A stretch of DNA of 64,000 nucleotides from the NCBI GenBank assembly GCA_964368945.1, contig CAYJDM010000001.1, positions 42,474 to 106,473 on the forward strand. Reading direction: 5' to 3'. Source of the DNA: an uncultured Candidatus Saccharibacteria bacterium. Its GTDB lineage: Bacteria; Patescibacteriota; Minisyncoccia; Phycocordibacterales; CAIZLB01. Positions 3,402-59,466 of the stretch are shown one piece after another (within the stretch, counting starts at the first letter, position 1; every line of letters starts with the position of its first letter). The notes beneath the pieces were generated by a model. The model saw nothing but the letters and a program-made list of their open reading frames with translations, did no database searches and was not told the DNA's origin. The translations under genes were made by a program, and so were the position numbers.

Positions 3402-6400
3402 ATGCATATTATGCCAAGCCTCAAAGAGTACGTTCTTACCCTAAAAAAATACAATCCGAAGACAGAGGATCGGCTGCTCAAAATCTATCTCCTCAAAGCG
3501 GGCTGGCCTATTTCTGATATAGAAACGGCCTTTGCTGAATACAATGCCGGCCATACATCAGGAGCGCCCATGCCTTCTCAGGCTGCGTCTGTTGCAGTGC
3601 CTGCGCCGGTTGTCTCCGCAATTCCCGCAGCTACCGCGTCAAAAATACCGACTTCAACTGCTATAGAAGTTGCCGCTCCTGAAATCGAGCCTGCGCATAT
3701 AGCAAAACCGATGCAACCGACTCCGACTCCGACTCCGACTCCGCCTTCGGCTTCTTCTTCAAAGCTTCCGCCAATCACTGCCGGTATAAATAGGCAGCCG
3801 TCGCCAGCTTCACCATCTCAAATAGAAATCGCGCCGCGCGAAATTTCTCCCGTGACGAATGCGATTCCTGTCGTCGGTACGAGCGCTTCGATTCCTGCCG
3901 GTATTCCGACAACGATAGCGCCTGTCACAACGGCTGTGGACATAGAAGTCCAGAGCAATGAGCCGATGGGCGGATTTTTATCTCCTTTTCCAAATACGCA
4001 AAATGCGCCATTGCCAAAAGAGCCCGAAAACGCGCTTCCTATAATTGATGGCAGCATCGATCGGGATTCATATGGAAAAATAATAGTGCCCGGAGAAAAT
4101 GCGGCGGCGGACAGCGGCATTCTCCTCAAGACTCCTACGGTTGCATCGATCGAGATCCTGACCGCGCTCGCAGATGGCGATGCTGCGAAAGTCCCTGGCG
4201 ATCCCATGTATGTCATGCCGGATATAGAGCGAGATCTCGCAGCTCCGCATGCATCTGATGCTCAGAATGATTTTAAGGAAAAAATCTCAACAGCGCCTTC
4301 CGAACATATTTTGGTATCCACGACGGCGGAAAGAGAGGTGGTGGATCCTGCGAATATGGCAGGCACTGTCATCGATCAAGCTCGAAGGCAATTTGCCAGC
4401 GAGGATATGGCGGCCAATCAAAGCGCTGTCATGCCAGCTGTCGCAGGTTCTCCGTCTGCATCCGGAGCGCGGTCGGCAATGATGGCCTCTGATTCGCATT
4501 CGGCATTTGCCGGCGGCGGCCTTGCATCAAATCAATTCACATCATCTGCCGATGTTCTCAATGGCATGTCTGCTGCGGTGCCCGCATCGACCGCGCCCGC
4601 CGGAATGGATGGTGCTGGATTGGCAAGCGGCCCCATGATGGCCGATGCATCCATAATCGCGCAGGATCCCGGACCTCAGCCAATCGTTGCTCCTATAAAA
4701 AAGAAAAAAAGCCATTTGAAATTATTCCTCTGGCTCGCCCTCATTCTCGTCCTGGGCGCTTTGGGATATGGATATACGCGATTCGTCCATGGCGTATATC
4801 TTTTCGTGAACCCGCCGGTTGGCCGCGAAGAGGTTTTGACATATATGACGAATTCGGCCGCCGCGCTTGAGACGGCTGAATATACGACGCAATTCCATAT
4901 GAGGGTTGCGCCGCGAGAACCGGGATCCGAAAGCATTGATTTGAATTCGATCGGCCTTGATCCGACCCTTCTTGCGGGAGGCATTTCTACCATAAAGGGT
5001 TCTTCGACTGCGCCGTTGACCGCTACGACTGCCGTGGCCACGGACGAGTCTGCAGACGCCGGATCTGCCACGGATACAGAGGATTTCCTTGCGGCATTTC
5101 CGGCAGATGCAAATATCGATGTGACGGTTAAGAGTTTTTATCAAAAGAATCGCGATGCGAGCGGCAATGCTGAGATTAAGAGCGATAATGCATTCCATCA
5201 TCAGGGAACATATTCGGGCGAAGGCGTGACAGCGAAGTTCGATGTCGAATCCGTAATCAAGGGCGGCGTCACTTATGTCAAAGCGAATGAATTCCCGCAG
5301 ATGCTGCTGGATATAGAGCCGGTAAAGGGCAAATGGATTTCGATTCAGAAGAGCGATGAAGATCTGCTCAAGAATGTTTTTCCATGGCTTTCGCTTTTCT
5401 CTCCGCTTCCTTCCGTCATGCCTTCTGCTAATGCTTCTGCTTCCACGACCAATGCCTCAGGCACGCCGATCATGGCCGCAAGCATGGGCTCTCTCGGCGG
5501 CGTGACGAATCTGACCAAGGGCTTCATATCGCCTCGACCGGCAAATGCCGATAAGCAGATCGCCCGGCTCATTTCCATAGCGGATGATGAAAAAGTCCTG
5601 CAGGTCATCGGCGATCCTATAAAGAATATTCAATCTGGCTCTGCTTGGTATATGCCGAAGCGCGTGACATATGTATATAAGGTCAAGCCGGATCTGGCGC
5701 AGTTCCTTGTTTTCATCGATCGCGCGAATACTATCCTGCAGAATGAATTCGGCACTTCGTCGATCATGGCTCTGACAGATGCCCAGAAAGCCGAGATCAA
5801 TGGCCCTGCTTTTGCCAAATTCTTCGAATATATGACGAATAATGGCCGCTTTGCCATCGAGGTCGACAAGTATAAGGCATTGGTCGGTTTTGAGATCAGC
5901 ATCAATGTCGTCTCCGAAACGAAGAGGACAGAGATCGGCGCGCGAATTTCTTTGGATAAAATAAATGACCGCATCTCTATCGAAGCTCCGAAAGCCGATC
6001 TTGATTTCTCTGATGCGTATACGCAGATGACTGGCCAGACGAGGGAGGTGATGGTGCTCAGGAATACCGCGCATGTCGTCGAGGCGATCAGATCCGCTCT
6101 CGCTGAATATCAGGCCGCGCATGAAGGGGCATTGCCAGATGATCTGATGGCTCTGCTCGCTGATCCTGCGGGCATCAAGGCCTTTGCTGCCGAGCCTGGC
6201 CTGGATGATAAGAATCTGCTTTCCTTGTATCAGTATAAAAAAATGCCGGCCACTGGAAATGGCAGCGGAAGCAAACAGGGATATCAGCTCGTCTACCAAA
6301 TCGCTCTTCCCAAAGTGCCAGAGCAATTCTATGAACTGCATCAGAACCTGATCGGATATGATTCTGCCAGCGCGATCTCTGCGGGCAGCGAGCGAAGCCT

Positions 6401-36247: not shown

Positions 36248-36334
36248 GGAGAGATGGCAGAGCGGTCGAATGTACTACCTTGGAAAGGTAGCATGGGAGA
36301 AATCCCATCGGGGGTTCGAATCCCCCTCTCTCCG
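36248..36334 (+). tRNA. tRNA-Ser (anticodon GGA)
   Basis: Manual fold. Acceptor stem GGAGAGA/TCTCTCC, discriminator G, anticodon stem-loop CTACC-TTGGAAA-GGTAG, long variable arm and T-arm GGGGG-TTCGAAT-CCCCC. CCA is not encoded. Confidence 0.85.
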
Positions 36335-36341
36335 CTACATA

Positions 36342-49313: not shown

Positions 49314-49994
49314 ATGGAAAACGAAATCAAAAACGATAATCAGAACCCAGTTTCAGAGCCTGCGTCGATTCAGCCAGCCGTCGTAGGCGGGAACAGCGGC
49401 CCGAGCCATTTCTATCTGCTCGTCGCTCTTTTCCTCGGCATCATAATCGCCTCGCTTCTCGTATTCAGATATGCGGAAAGCAAGAGGGCTGCGTATGGAC
49501 AGGGTCAGAGCCCGGCTGCTGAATCTGTTCAAAAAGAAAGAGAGCTTGCGCCGACTGTTTCGACAGAAAAGCAATCCCTCCGAACCGATGATGCGCCGAA
49601 GACGGTGGCTGCGAAAACAGCCGCGCCAGCAAGCGCTTATGAGATGGCAGATATCAAGATGGCGGGCAAGACTTTCTCTGCGGAAATTGCCGATACATTC
49701 TCATTGCGCGAATCGGGCTTATCGAATCGCGCTTCGATCGCAAGCGATAAGGCCATGCTTTTCATTTTCGAGACAGACGATAATCATCTGTTCTGGATGA
49801 AGGATATGAATTTCGCTATCGATATGATCTGGCTGGATTCGAATAAGAAAGTGGTCCATATTGCCAAAAAAGCGGCGCCCGAATCATATCCGCAGACATT
49901 CGGTCAATCCAAGAATTCCAGATATGTAATCGAGGTCAAATCCGGCATTGCCGATTCTATCGGATTGCAGGTAGGGGATATTGTGAGTTTTTAA
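49314..49994 (+). CDS. DUF192 domain protein
   Basis: AEIADTFSLRESGLSNR...MLFIFE...FWMKDMNFAIDMIWLD...YVIEVKSG pattern. Confidence 0.7.
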   Translation: MENEIKNDNQNPVSEPASIQPAVVGGNSGPSHFYLLVALFLGIIIASLLVFRYAESKRAAYGQGQSPAAESVQKERELAPTVSTEKQSLRTDDAPKTVAAKTAAPASAYEMADIKMAGKTFSAEIADTFSLRESGLSNRASIASDKAMLFIFETDDNHLFWMKDMNFAIDMIWLDSNKKVVHIAKKAAPESYPQTFGQSKNSRYVIEVKSGIADSIGLQVGDIVSF

Positions 49995-50012
49995 TATAAA
50001 AAGCAAAAACAA

Positions 50013-50047
50013 AAACCGCCCGTATCTTGCGACACTGGCGGTTTTCG
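50013..50047. terminator. bidirectional terminator hairpin (aaaccgcc ... ggcggttt). It serves the DUF192 gene on the plus strand and rnpB on the minus strand.
   Basis: Stem flanked by A- and T-tracts on both strands. Confidence 0.5.
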
Positions 50048-50540
50048 TATGCCTATAAGCCGAATTCTGTTCTTCGATGCCTTGCGACAGGGAAGGGACA
50101 ATCATTCATCTTGTCATGCGATTGCTCGCATGATCTTTGCGTCACTCCCTTCAAATATACACGTGGTAATTCGAAGGGCACGGACTTGCACAGGGGTAAG
50201 GATTTTGCCGTTTCACTCCTCGGATCTCTCCGTGGATTCATCCTGCGCGGCGCTTCGATCATTGCTGATCTGGCGCTTATGCGCGGGATGCCGTTTGCTT
50301 TCGCTCTCGGCGTCACTGCTCGCACCTCTCAATTCGCAAGCCTTCATTGCCGGGACGTTTTTCAACATGAGCAATGCCTGCTGCGGTTGCGACGGGAATT
50401 ACCCGCTACCTTGCTCGAATGCTCCTTCCTGCCATTGATTGCACTCGCTGGCAGGGAATCGTCACATTCGCTGTGTTCGGACTTTCCTCTCTCCTTGCCT
50501 TGTATATGCAAAAGGAAGGTCGAGCGATTGTCTGGCACGT
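50045..50540 (-). ncRNA. rnpB: RNase P RNA (bacterial type, probably type A). The 5' end is uncertain and could lie at about 50540 or about 50580.
   Basis: The minus strand reads GAGAGGAAAGUCCGAAC (P4 5' strand, CR-I), GGAGUGAAACGG (GGGUGAAAnGG-like) and near the 3' end CUGUC...GAACAGAAUUCGGCUUA (P18 and P4 3' strand, CR-V). The P4 pairing AGUCCGAA/UUCGGCUU covaries with E. coli AGUCCGGG/CCCGGCUU. An upstream TTGCTT-N16/17-TGaTATAAT promoter and a downstream terminator are present. All overlapping ORFs are non-protein-like. Confidence 0.7.
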
Positions 50541-50659
50541 ATATATTATATCATATTTTATGTAAAAAAGCAAAGTACCGCCAAAGCGGCGATTCGCAAG
50601 AAAAGCAAAAGGCGCCGCGGCACGTAAAAACGTGTCCGCAGCGCCGTATAGGGCCCAGG

Positions 50660-51421
50660 CTAAGCGCGCCCGACGTTCGGAGAGTCCTCCATATTCCTCG
50701 GCCAGACTTTCGCGGGTCCGATGGGCAAGGTGAATGTCCGAGGCTCGATATTGTCCGAAAAAGCGCCAAAGGCTCGCACGGCATCGATCTTGTTGCTCAA
50801 TAAATCGATGCTCGGATCCGATGCCGGATATGGATCATTGGGGTCCGCTTGCTTGGCTCTGCCCTCTGTGGCTCGGAGCAGGCTTCGCATGTCCTTCTGG
50901 ATTGTCATCAAGAGCCAGTGGGCGAGCAAGGACGTCCTTGCGGCCAAAACGACCTTTGAGGCAGCTTCGCCGTATCTGATGCATTCGATTTCCTGGATGG
51001 TGACCCATTCTCGATCTTCGAGCATCAATTTGGACGGGCTAGGAGCCTTTGGATCGTTCAGGATCTTTTTGCCAAAGGCATTGACCAGATCGGCATATGC
51101 CTCTCTGGCATCCTGCGCCTCCTTTCCATATGGCTTGGCAATCATGCGGCGCCAGATGGTCCAGCTGACAATCATGCCCACGAAAGAGACCGTGATGATC
51201 GCCTTGGGCACGAAGTCGTGGGATATCCGCAGCGCAGGAGATAGATTCATGAGCTGTAGCGCAACGCCAAAGAGGAGGAAGCCGAATAAGATCAGAAGGC
51301 ATCGGCCTGCACGGTTCGACATGGCTTCGTTTCGGATAGCCTCAGTCAGCTGCTCCGTGGTCAGGAGGACCTGGTTGCGAGCGATATACCACTCGATCAG
51401 GTAGCGTGGGATTTTTTTCAT
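50660..51421 (-). CDS. hypothetical membrane protein
   Basis: Start placed at MKKIPRYL, with two TM helices. An imperfect hairpin and T-tract terminator lies at about 50604-50641. Confidence 0.45.
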   Translation of the reverse strand: MKKIPRYLIEWYIARNQVLLTTEQLTEAIRNEAMSNRAGRCLLILFGFLLFGVALQLMNLSPALRISHDFVPKAIITVSFVGMIVSWTIWRRMIAKPYGKEAQDAREAYADLVNAFGKKILNDPKAPSPSKLMLEDREWVTIQEIECIRYGEAASKVVLAARTSLLAHWLLMTIQKDMRSLLRATEGRAKQADPNDPYPASDPSIDLLSNKIDAVRAFGAFSDNIEPRTFTLPIGPAKVWPRNMEDSPNVGRA

Positions 51422-51658
51422 TATATGGAATGTGCTATGCCGGGTGTTGGCGCGGCGGGTTGGGTTTCGGGGTTTCTGGCTTGATGGATTGTACGGAATC
51501 GGGCTGATGGGTTGGCATCTGAGCCTTCTCACGCGTTCGCTTTTCGAAAATCGCGATATCCATACTTAATCATTCTTATATATACATGTCAAGTGTCTGC
51601 CGAGTGCCATGACCGCCGTTGTACCCAGTTTTGAGGCCGTAAAATAAGGGCGTATGGT

Positions 51659-53588: not shown

Positions 53589-54395
53589 TCAGACGCGAAC
53601 AGGCCGTCGATGGGATTCGTTCCAGGTGTCGCCCGGTCCTGATTTCTCAAAGAAGAACCCCCGTTTCGTATCATAAGCGATGAGGCCGAAGCACCAAGCC
53701 TTCGAGATGGCGGTATCCAGCTTTTCCCTGAGCGGATCGGCGGCTTTTCGTCCATCTTTTTCATCCTTGGATTCTATCCTCATCGCTTGAGCGCGCATCT
53801 CCATAAGCGCATAATACGCCAGCGTAGAGCATGCGGACTCACGAATCGAGTCTCCCTTATCGGTGCTCCAGCAGTATACTTCAAATGATTTCGTTACTTT
53901 TTCGAGCCATTCCTTGTCAGCGGCCAAGGTCGGTTCGTCCCAATTCCATCGGTCGATTTTCTCGAGATCTTCGGGATTGAGGAATTGGCATAGGGATTTA
54001 AAATCATCGATCATGAGTCCGAAGCTGCCGGTCAGCACTCGCCGTCTTCCGTGAAAGTCTCCGTCGGGATAGCGGTGCCACCTCGTCTCTCTACGGATTT
54101 GGCCGAAGTCGAACATGGCGGTGAGCAGGATGAGAATGGGCGTCAGGAGCAATAGGTCTTGCCACCAGCTCCTCTGCCCGCTGATTCGAGGAAAACAGAA
54201 GTAGTAGAGGGTGATGAAAATCGCTATCGCGACGAGCGCGATGACAGTGTTCCAGACGATTTTCTTCCTCCGATAAGGAAGGAATTCCTCATAGTCATCA
54301 TTCCATTTTTCCAGCTGCGATAGCGTCGTTTTCACGGACGGATTCGCTCTGTGCCACCACTGGATGGCGTATTTGGGCATTTTGATATGTTTCAT
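53589..54395 (-). CDS. hypothetical membrane protein
   Basis: ORF with two TM helices. A hairpin and T-tract lie at about 53542-53567. Confidence 0.45.
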   Translation of the reverse strand: MKHIKMPKYAIQWWHRANPSVKTTLSQLEKWNDDYEEFLPYRRKKIVWNTVIALVAIAIFITLYYFCFPRISGQRSWWQDLLLLTPILILLTAMFDFGQIRRETRWHRYPDGDFHGRRRVLTGSFGLMIDDFKSLCQFLNPEDLEKIDRWNWDEPTLAADKEWLEKVTKSFEVYCWSTDKGDSIRESACSTLAYYALMEMRAQAMRIESKDEKDGRKAADPLREKLDTAISKAWCFGLIAYDTKRGFFFEKSGPGDTWNESHRRPVRV

Positions 54396-59308: not shown

Positions 59309-59380
59309 GCCGCCGTCGTTCAATGGATAGGACTATTCTTTCCTAAAGAATCGATCTGGGTTCGACTCCCAGCGGGGGCA
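59309..59380 (+). tRNA. probable tRNA-Arg (anticodon CCT); one G-G mismatch in the acceptor stem
   Basis: Manual cloverleaf. Acceptor GCCGCCG/CGGGGGC, D-arm GTTC-AATGGATA-GGAC with A20, anticodon stem-loop ATTCT-TTCCTAA-AGAAT, T-arm CTGGG-TTCGACT-CCCAG, discriminator A. Total length 72 nt. Confidence 0.55.
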
Positions 59381-59466
59381 CAAAAAAGTAAAAAATATAA
59401 CAGCCGCGAAACCTTTCGGAATCGTGGCTGTGAATTTGTGACAATCTATCGGCCATGAGTAGATCG

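Follow-up and report, generated by a model that had tools for sequence, protein, structure and literature searches.

Does the minus strand next to the DUF192 gene of this genome lie beneath a protein-coding gene, as public gene calls over the same sequence would have it, or does it encode a structured RNA that a standard family search passes over? The locus is part of a 64,000-nucleotide (nt) stretch of contig CAYJDM010000001.1, referred to here as the window. We present evidence that window positions 50049-50538 (-) are rnpB, the gene for RNase P RNA, in an enlarged version characteristic of the ultra-small Patescibacteria, and we hold with high confidence that it is a real and almost certainly functional gene of a bacterium belonging to the candidate phyla radiation (CPR, or Patescibacteria). 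RNase P is the universal tRNA-trimming ribozyme, which removes the 5′ leader of precursor tRNAs. As the putative single-copy rnpB of its host, the gene would supply the catalytic RNA for this trimming reaction. A preliminary description, made from the letters of the DNA, had claimed an unannotated RNase P RNA on this strand, and the claim was borne out by a full-length match to the Rfam family RF00010 at E ~1e-19 and by covariation in 104 homologues.

At its gathering thresholds, Rfam reported two tRNAs only in the whole window and no RNase P. The absence of RNase P suggested by this result was dropped after a scan by E-value, in which RF00010, the bacterial class A family, was the top match in the whole window (E = 9.2e-18). 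When the region itself was scanned, the match was full length (model positions 1-367), lay at 50040-50541 (-) and scored 65.8 bits with E = 1.2e-19. RF00010 was the best and sole significant Rfam family for the region, and class A beat class B (RF00011) in Rfam clan competition. In addition, the minimum free energy (MFE) z-score of the 490-nt RNA was -3.77. The preliminary description had proposed that the lack of an Rfam hit above threshold should count against the gene; taken literally there is no such hit (65.8 against 100 bits), yet the match is full length. We regard this as a badly chosen yardstick, because of that full-length match and its E-value, because shorter-armed relatives score 100-126 bits and because thresholds for the CPR need to be lowered (PMC8172020).

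The comparative evidence came from 104 distinct full-length homologues in Patescibacteria genomes and metagenomes, collected by two independent pattern scans and from syntenic loci. A DNA-pattern scan of species-representative genomes gave eight loci, of which seven are labelled Patescibacteria, Paceibacterota, Parcubacteria or Saccharibacteria and one (L014) only "bacterium"; the labels of the nearest genomes point to a CPR/Patescibacteria host for the window. The second, independent pattern, GAGGTGCGAGCAGTGACGCC, matched at least 120 metagenome contigs. Not every one of these matches is rnpB; of 139 sequences put through a motif filter (the window and 138 loci), 119 passed. A 20-mer match to the scan pattern at L019 5762-5781, which falls in unrelated high-GC DNA, was discarded as a chance hit. 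Furthermore, DUF192 homologues 40-56% identical to the one in the window occur in the same gene order, each then accompanied by a homologous RNA that scores only 28-50 bits with Rfam, and in these relatives the syntenic rnpB homologues lie between DUF192 and MurJ. The P0002 contigs, whose DUF192 is 74% identical, gave no usable homologue (downstream of DUF192, L002 shows nothing that matches RNase P, and L003 spans just 941 bp), and neither did L010, where synteny is lost. The 104 sequences, with a P4-to-P4 span of 201-643 nt, were aligned with MAFFT. The P4 strands and the J11/12 block had been used to retrieve or filter them; the co-varying helices were not selected for.

The structure of the window RNA was drawn by hand, aided by local folding, and scored on this alignment. 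All core helices (P1-P5, P7, P8, P10/11, P15 and P18) could be drawn, and compensatory changes were found wherever helices vary. P1-P5, P7, P8, P15 and P18, together with several lineage-specific hairpins, co-vary strongly. Among 75 core pairs, 89.9% were standard, against 68.8 ± 0.35% in 500 column permutations, and shifted registers gave 13-62% with one outlier of 79% (basal P3 shifted by +2). Double, i.e. compensatory, changes were seen at 3 of 3 basal P3 pairs, 5 of 8 in P4, 4 of 5 in P5 and 3 of 5 in P7; the counts for P1, P2, P8, P15 and P18 are given in Table 1. Pair counting with the P4 pseudoknot on the nine closest sequences showed 87.5% paired, against 77.2 ± 0.7% in shuffles, and 65 pairs with double changes against 38.6; none of 500 shuffles was as high by any measure, and sliding the 3′ partners reduced pairing to 34-42%. 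RNAalifold, applied to the same nine sequences, independently found P1, P3, the hairpin at the position of P5.1, P8, three hairpins designated H1-H3, P18 and P19. In an alignment-free test, each arm formed a closed hairpin in 66-99% of homologues. P10/P11 and the blocks resembling conserved regions II and III (CR-II, CR-III) are present and invariant, and hence lie outside the reach of covariation.

Table 1. Features of the rnpB locus in window coordinates, with lengths compared with the family where available
Feature	Coordinates	Strand	Length in window (nt)	Family median (nt)	Evidence
RNase P RNA (rnpB), P1 5′ strand to P1 3′ strand	50049..50538	-	490	355	RF00010, MFE z-score, covariation
-35 hexamer TTGCTT	50568..50573	-			read from sequence; 17-nt spacer to TATAAT
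-10 hexamer TATAAT	50545..50550	-			predicted start ~50538-50540, first base of P1
P1 5′ strand GUGCC, pairs with GGCAU 50049-50053	50534..50538	-			5/5 pairs with double changes, e.g. GC43/AU21/CG6
P2 5′ strand GACAAUC, pairs with GAUUGUC 50097-50103	50526..50532	-			93.5% standard; 7/7 double changes
P3 hairpin	50489..50524	-	30	16	~14 nt above family median; pairs 97-100% standard, co-vary
CR-I / P4 5′ strand GGAAAGUCCGAAC, bulged U	50475..50487	-			sequence, P4 pairing
55-nt hairpin between P5 and P7 (type B P5.1 position)	50416..50470	-			basal 7 pairs co-vary
P5.1-position region			60	22	
P8, GCGGG-UAAUU-CCCGU	50393..50405	-			99.3% paired; 3/4 pairs with double changes
Expanded P9 arm	50330..50391	-	64	15	closed hairpin in 87% of sequences
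P10/P11 5′ strand and J11/12 (CR-II-like) block GAGGUGCGAGCAGUGAC	50312..50328	-			invariant in all homologues, partly via metagenome search pattern
H1, P12-like hairpin, GAAA tetraloop	50290..50311	-			GAAA in 102/103
H2, expanded hairpin, GCAA tip	50240..50289	-	50	19	basal pairs co-vary in close relatives
H3, hairpin, GAGA tetraloop	50217..50236	-			7/7 pairs with double changes; GNRA loop 79/104
J12/13 (CR-III-like) GUGAAAC and P11/P10 3′ strands GGCAAAAUCC	50200..50216	-			kept in 104/104, outside metagenome search pattern
P15 (GUC/GAC), internal loop CGUG/AGU, P16/17-like extension, apical CCACGUG	50141..50185	-			96.5% paired; 3/3 double changes
P18, UCAUGCGA-GCAA-UCGCAUGA	50114..50133	-			8/8 double changes; 92.9% paired; GNRA loop 101/104
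P19-like hairpin in J2/4, CUUC-CC-UGUC-GCAA-GGCA-UC-GAAG	50072..50095	-			basal 4 pairs all with double changes
CR-V / P4 3′ strand ACAGAAUUCGGCUUA	50056..50070	-			sequence, P4 pairing
Intrinsic terminator hairpin, GCAA tip, U/T runs on both strands	50009..50048	both			-29.9 kcal/mol for region
Spurious 258-aa ORF over rnpB	50027..50803	+			no Pfam match; called as gene in L001

The catalytic domain is canonical in P1-P5, P15, P18, J3/4, J5/15, J18/2 and J2/4. With P1-P5, P15, P18 and a P4 pseudoknot with its bulged U, the predicted domain carries all of the universal blocks GGAAAGUCCG, GCAAG, AGAUGAAUG and ACAGAAnnCGGCUUA. The pseudoknot, formed by GGAAAGUCCG with ACAGAAnnCGGCUUA, has eight pairs that are 99.8% standard across 103 sequences, and its pair RNA 69-483 is AU in 69 and GC in 34 of them; the conserved P4 strands, with GG/CC to AA/UU changes, had thus been recognized correctly. 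Other elements in the preliminary description fared less evenly. A CUGUC hairpin that it had likened to P18, as CUGUC...GACAG, does exist, but it occupies the P19 position in J2/4 rather than that of P18, and GACAG is absent from the RNA, as is a UGCAAC element that had been listed beside it. The P19-like hairpin itself was found in 78 of the 104 sequences.

The P15 arm is one extended hairpin. At its apex, a motif CACGUG(U/C)A(U/C) (window 50157-50166, RNA 380-389) is present in nine long-form relatives, the window RNA included, and in these nine it co-occurs strictly with a P5.1-position hairpin of fixed length (53-55 nt, the size seen in the nine close relatives) that ends in an NU(G/A)CA tip. 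L020, a tenth sequence, carries CACGUG in its arm, but its hairpin at the P5.1 position measures only 13 nt. It is plausible that the P5.1-position hairpin and the tip of the P15-17 arm are in tertiary contact. One specific form of it, a loop-loop contact of NUGCA in the hairpin with UGUAU at the arm tip, is unsupported, the sole informative substitution (in L006) being also compensated locally, inside the arm. A pairing of the apical CACG with CGUG of the P15 loop, offered by RNAalifold, was not adopted, since it does not vary in the alignment and is at odds with the co-varying stem of P16.

The specificity domain (S-domain) departs further from the models. Its elements run in the order P10/P11, CR-II-like GAGCAGUGAC, H1-H3 and CR-III-like GUGAAACGG, followed directly by the P11 3′ strand. 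Rfam applied to the S-domain alone gave nothing significant and no model assignment to class A, class B or the archaeal type; the only match, a faint one, was of the block GUGAAACGGCAAAAUCC to RF00011 positions 188-215. Even in the relative that scores 125.7 bits, Rfam aligns the S-domain with low posterior probability. The conserved block noted earlier, GGAGUGAAACGG, is present at 50219-50208 (-), and the GUAA-containing hairpin that had also been noted proved to be P8 (50405-50393). P9, long in the window, is a short GNRA-capped hairpin in 84 of the 104 homologues. In H1, the pairs RNA 238-253 and 242-249 exceed all of 1000 permutations, and in H2 (helix 18) five of eight pairs show double changes among close relatives. 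We also considered an alternative P11, in which GCC (RNA 235-237) would pair with GGC (337-339) and enclose H1-H3 as a multiloop; it was ruled out, since for the covariation of position 238 with 253 none of 1000 permutations was as high, and with 336 the level was that of chance. The names H1-H3, any functional analogy of these hairpins to P12-P14, and the tertiary contacts are our inference. On the proposed structure, P7-P11 with the CR-II-like and CR-III-like blocks would dock the T-arm of the tRNA, and the GNRA/GAAA tetraloops on P9, H1, H3 and P18 would give the usual long-range contacts.

Why, then, does the RNA score so low? An earlier estimate of about 470-500 nt, long for type A, agrees with the 490 nt measured from P1 to P1, against 367 positions in the Rfam model and a family median of 355 nt; 90 of the 104 sequences are shorter. 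We attribute the low score to the tip expansions of P3, the P5.1-position hairpin, P9 and H2 (~135 nt), together with an S-domain without canonical P13/P14 and a P15 loop without GGU. When RF00010 was run on 20 other family members, 12 scored 100-126 bits (maximum 125.7) and eight 31-98; shorter forms mostly pass the cut-off and the most expanded score lowest, with few exceptions. Still larger expansions occur in relatives: 304 nt in the P15-17 arm (L029/L117), 173 nt at P5.1 (L101) and 160 nt in the P19 region (L086/L038). The 304-nt expansion of L029, a sequence found identically on six metagenome contigs, folds as a long irregular helix, and this RNA scores 31.4 bits against RF00010.

Signals for transcription flank the RNA on both sides. 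The upstream promoter claimed in the preliminary description was found as TTGCTT and TATAAT with a spacing of 17 nt, although a generic promoter scan chose a neighbouring, weaker combination instead. Of the 104 homologues, 66 have a -10-like hexamer 4-12 nt upstream of P1, and 73 have one at 1-22 nt. On the other side, the bidirectional terminator said to be shared with DUF192 is present as a hairpin between rnpB and the DUF192 stop at 49994, with weak Thr_leader terminator-type matches on both strands, and hairpins of different sequence follow P1 likewise in L005, L006 and L008. The predicted minus-strand transcript thus issues from a sigma-70-type promoter that belongs to the gene itself, begins close to the first base of P1 and would end at the hairpin shared with the convergent DUF192 gene.

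The reading with the least to recommend it takes one of the overlapping open reading frames (ORFs), e.g. 50027-50803 (+), for a real protein-coding gene. The ORFs exist at exactly the coordinates listed in the preliminary description (50027..50803, 50049..50438, 50053..50325 and 50374..50565). The first of these is called as a gene by public pipelines, the exact DUF192 protein of the window being found on public contigs where gene callers set the 258-aa ORF over the RNA, and tblastn detects similarity to it in relatives. However, in every relative the similar stretches fall in different frames, and of 39 indels with respect to the four closest relatives just 10 have a length that is a multiple of three. 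The public calls over rnpB homologues also disagree: 258 aa in L001 (1184-1960), 146 aa in L005 (3839-4279), 202 aa in L006 (3673-4281) and, in some relatives, no called ORF at all. With 10.4% Arg, 5.0% Cys, no Pfam match and a frame that is not conserved, the 258-aa ORF deserves its earlier description as Cys/Arg-rich noise, and the pattern of conservation over it is one of paired compensatory changes. The locus is non-coding in character; the ORFs that overlap it do not keep their frames in relatives and are best regarded as spurious, and we give a coding gene practically no chance.

Two further alternatives accept the RNase P ancestry of the RNA and question its function, and a number of points weigh against the main reading. 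The score lies below the RF00010 gathering cut-off of 100 bits. Canonical P13/P14 are absent 3′ of CR-III, where GUGAAAC runs directly into GGC of P11; P11 itself has only 2-3 pairs, and at one of them, U222-A340, half of the homologues have U/U or U/C. No pseudoknot partner was identified for P6; J5/7 is filled by a hairpin, and no co-varying partner was found for the apical loop of the P15 arm. In the P15 loop, the 3′ strand reads (G/A)AGU, a sequence that the family conserves, and the class A GGU, which pairs with the tRNA 3′ CCA, is missing; its loss fits tRNA genes that do not encode CCA, as is the case for both in the window, tRNA-Ser(GGA) at 36248-36335 and tRNA-Arg(CCU) at 59309-59381. 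The invariance of the P4 strands and the J11/12 block is partly due to the way homologues were selected. Moreover, the view covers 64 kb of the genome, and a second rnpB or a protein-only RNase P may lie elsewhere; a crude motif search of this window revealed nothing convincing for rnpA/rpmH. Lastly, expression and catalysis are properties that we infer. On the strength of the sub-threshold score, the missing canonical elements, the weak P11 and the limited part of the genome in view, one might take the locus for a degenerating or non-functional remnant, with activity supplied by another rnpB or by a protein-only enzyme of the HARP/PRORP type. We consider this very improbable. The universally conserved core blocks are all intact, 104 distinct sequences share the architecture and show compensatory changes within it, the added segments lie at the tips of helices and themselves fold into helices, the gene still has its promoter and its terminator, and synteny reaches across deep divergence; for these reasons we see a constrained RNA rather than decay. 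It could also be supposed that an RNase P-derived RNA has taken on another main function, for example in regulation or as a scaffold, with P4-like motifs retained, given its unusual S-domain, its large lineage-specific arms and a conserved palindromic CACGUG apical loop with no identified partner. This is even less probable than a remnant: the match to RF00010 is full length, the catalytic-core blocks all stand in canonical order, shorter members of the family pass the curated Rfam cut-off as ordinary RNase P RNAs, and each locus has a single copy in a housekeeping setting.

To which type of RNase P RNA does this rnpB belong? The preliminary label "type A" holds insofar as RF00010 is the best family, and is only approximate, as neither canonical P13/P14 nor P6 was found and the place of the type B P5.1 is filled by a hairpin. 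With class A (RF00010, the E. coli M1 type) the window RNA shares P1-P5, the P4 pseudoknot with bulged U, P7-P11, P15, P18 with its GNRA loop, J18/2 AGAUGAAUG, J5/15 GCAAG and the optional P19. It differs from this class in length (490 nt against ~367 model positions), owing to expansions of helix tips, in having H1-H3 before J12/13 instead of P13/P14 after it, and in the hairpin in J5/7, the failure to identify a P6 and the lack of the P15-loop GGU. According to a feature table for classes A, B and C, class B has P5.1, P10.1 and P15.1 and is without P6, P13, P14, P16 and P17 (PMC2858038). The window RNA resembles class B (RF00011, the Bacillus type) in the absence of P13/P14, in that no P6 was identified, and in the presence of P19 and the P5.1-position hairpin, whereas no P10.1 or P15.1 was found in it, a P16/17-like extension is present, P15 is a single hairpin and the organism is not a Firmicute.

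The closest precedent is the study of Lui, Nielsen & Arkin 2021 (PLoS Comput Biol, PMC8172020), in which 10 of 35 circularised CPR genomes appeared to have no RNase P RNA and yielded one once a lower RF00010 bit-score threshold was applied. Manual refolding was needed for most of the CPR RNAs in that study on account of "large extensions of helices" or missing helices, many were without P13, P14, P16 and P17, the CCA-binding motif was missing in 23 of the 35 genomes, and loss of P12, P15 or P18 was highlighted. The window RNA resembles them in its Patescibacteria origin, an RF00010 match only below threshold, helix extensions and the missing P13/P14 and CCA-binding motif; P5.1, P19, class B features and a three-hairpin array are not mentioned in that description. 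Our literature search found no treatment of CPR RNase P RNA beyond that paper. Diverged and expanded CPR RNase P RNAs are therefore already published, the window RNA adds one more, and its biology is unsurprising. An analogy in another molecule, with no mechanistic link to the rnpB expansions, is offered by the expansion segments of CPR rRNA, which are lineage-specific helix-tip insertions of variable length in an essential structured RNA of the same bacterial group.

What may be new is the S-domain and P5.1 architecture common to a large clade, which may merit a model of its own. We put forward, as a tentative suggestion that we think will probably not hold, that the 100+ sequences form a distinct, undescribed structural class of Patescibacteria RNase P RNA, a mosaic of class A and class B. 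Its traits may include a P5.1-position hairpin that replaces the P6 strand, a P12-like hairpin with invariant GAAA, a P15 loop without GGU, two hairpins 5′ of CR-III in place of P13/P14, and expansion hot spots of up to ~300 nt. If such a class exists, it deserves its own covariance model, which would recover rnpB in many CPR genomes scored as "missing". Since the score falls short of the Rfam cut-off, an essential gene will seem to be missing from this genome, and probably from many related metagenome-assembled genomes, which affects completeness checks based on universal RNAs. In place of rnpB, a spurious 258-aa "hypothetical protein" has been deposited, and products of this kind pollute protein databases. 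The 104-homologue alignment also constitutes a comparative data set on the tolerance of an essential ribozyme, in ultra-small bacteria, for longer helix tips and for a specificity domain whose parts are rearranged, within the limit that the phenomenon has been published before and that the function is the housekeeping role one would expect.

The gene order around the locus is HisKA, hypothetical, MIP, Flavodoxin_2, DUF192 (49314-49994, +), rnpB (-), the gene for a 290-aa hypothetical protein (-) and MurJ. At window 50577-50643 (-), two hairpins with U-runs lie downstream of the 290-aa gene and a short way upstream of the rnpB promoter. They probably shield rnpB from read-through, and one of them has a weak match of the rnk-leader-like terminator type. 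In L097, the 3′ end of a 16S rRNA gene (1-618) lies ~2.8 kb upstream of rnpB (3425-3861) on the same strand. Finally, the two hypothetical proteins that flank murJ in the window (50660-51532 and 53589-54395, both on the minus strand) have no Pfam match and are weak paralogues of one another (BLASTP E = 7e-6, 23% identity over 107 aa).

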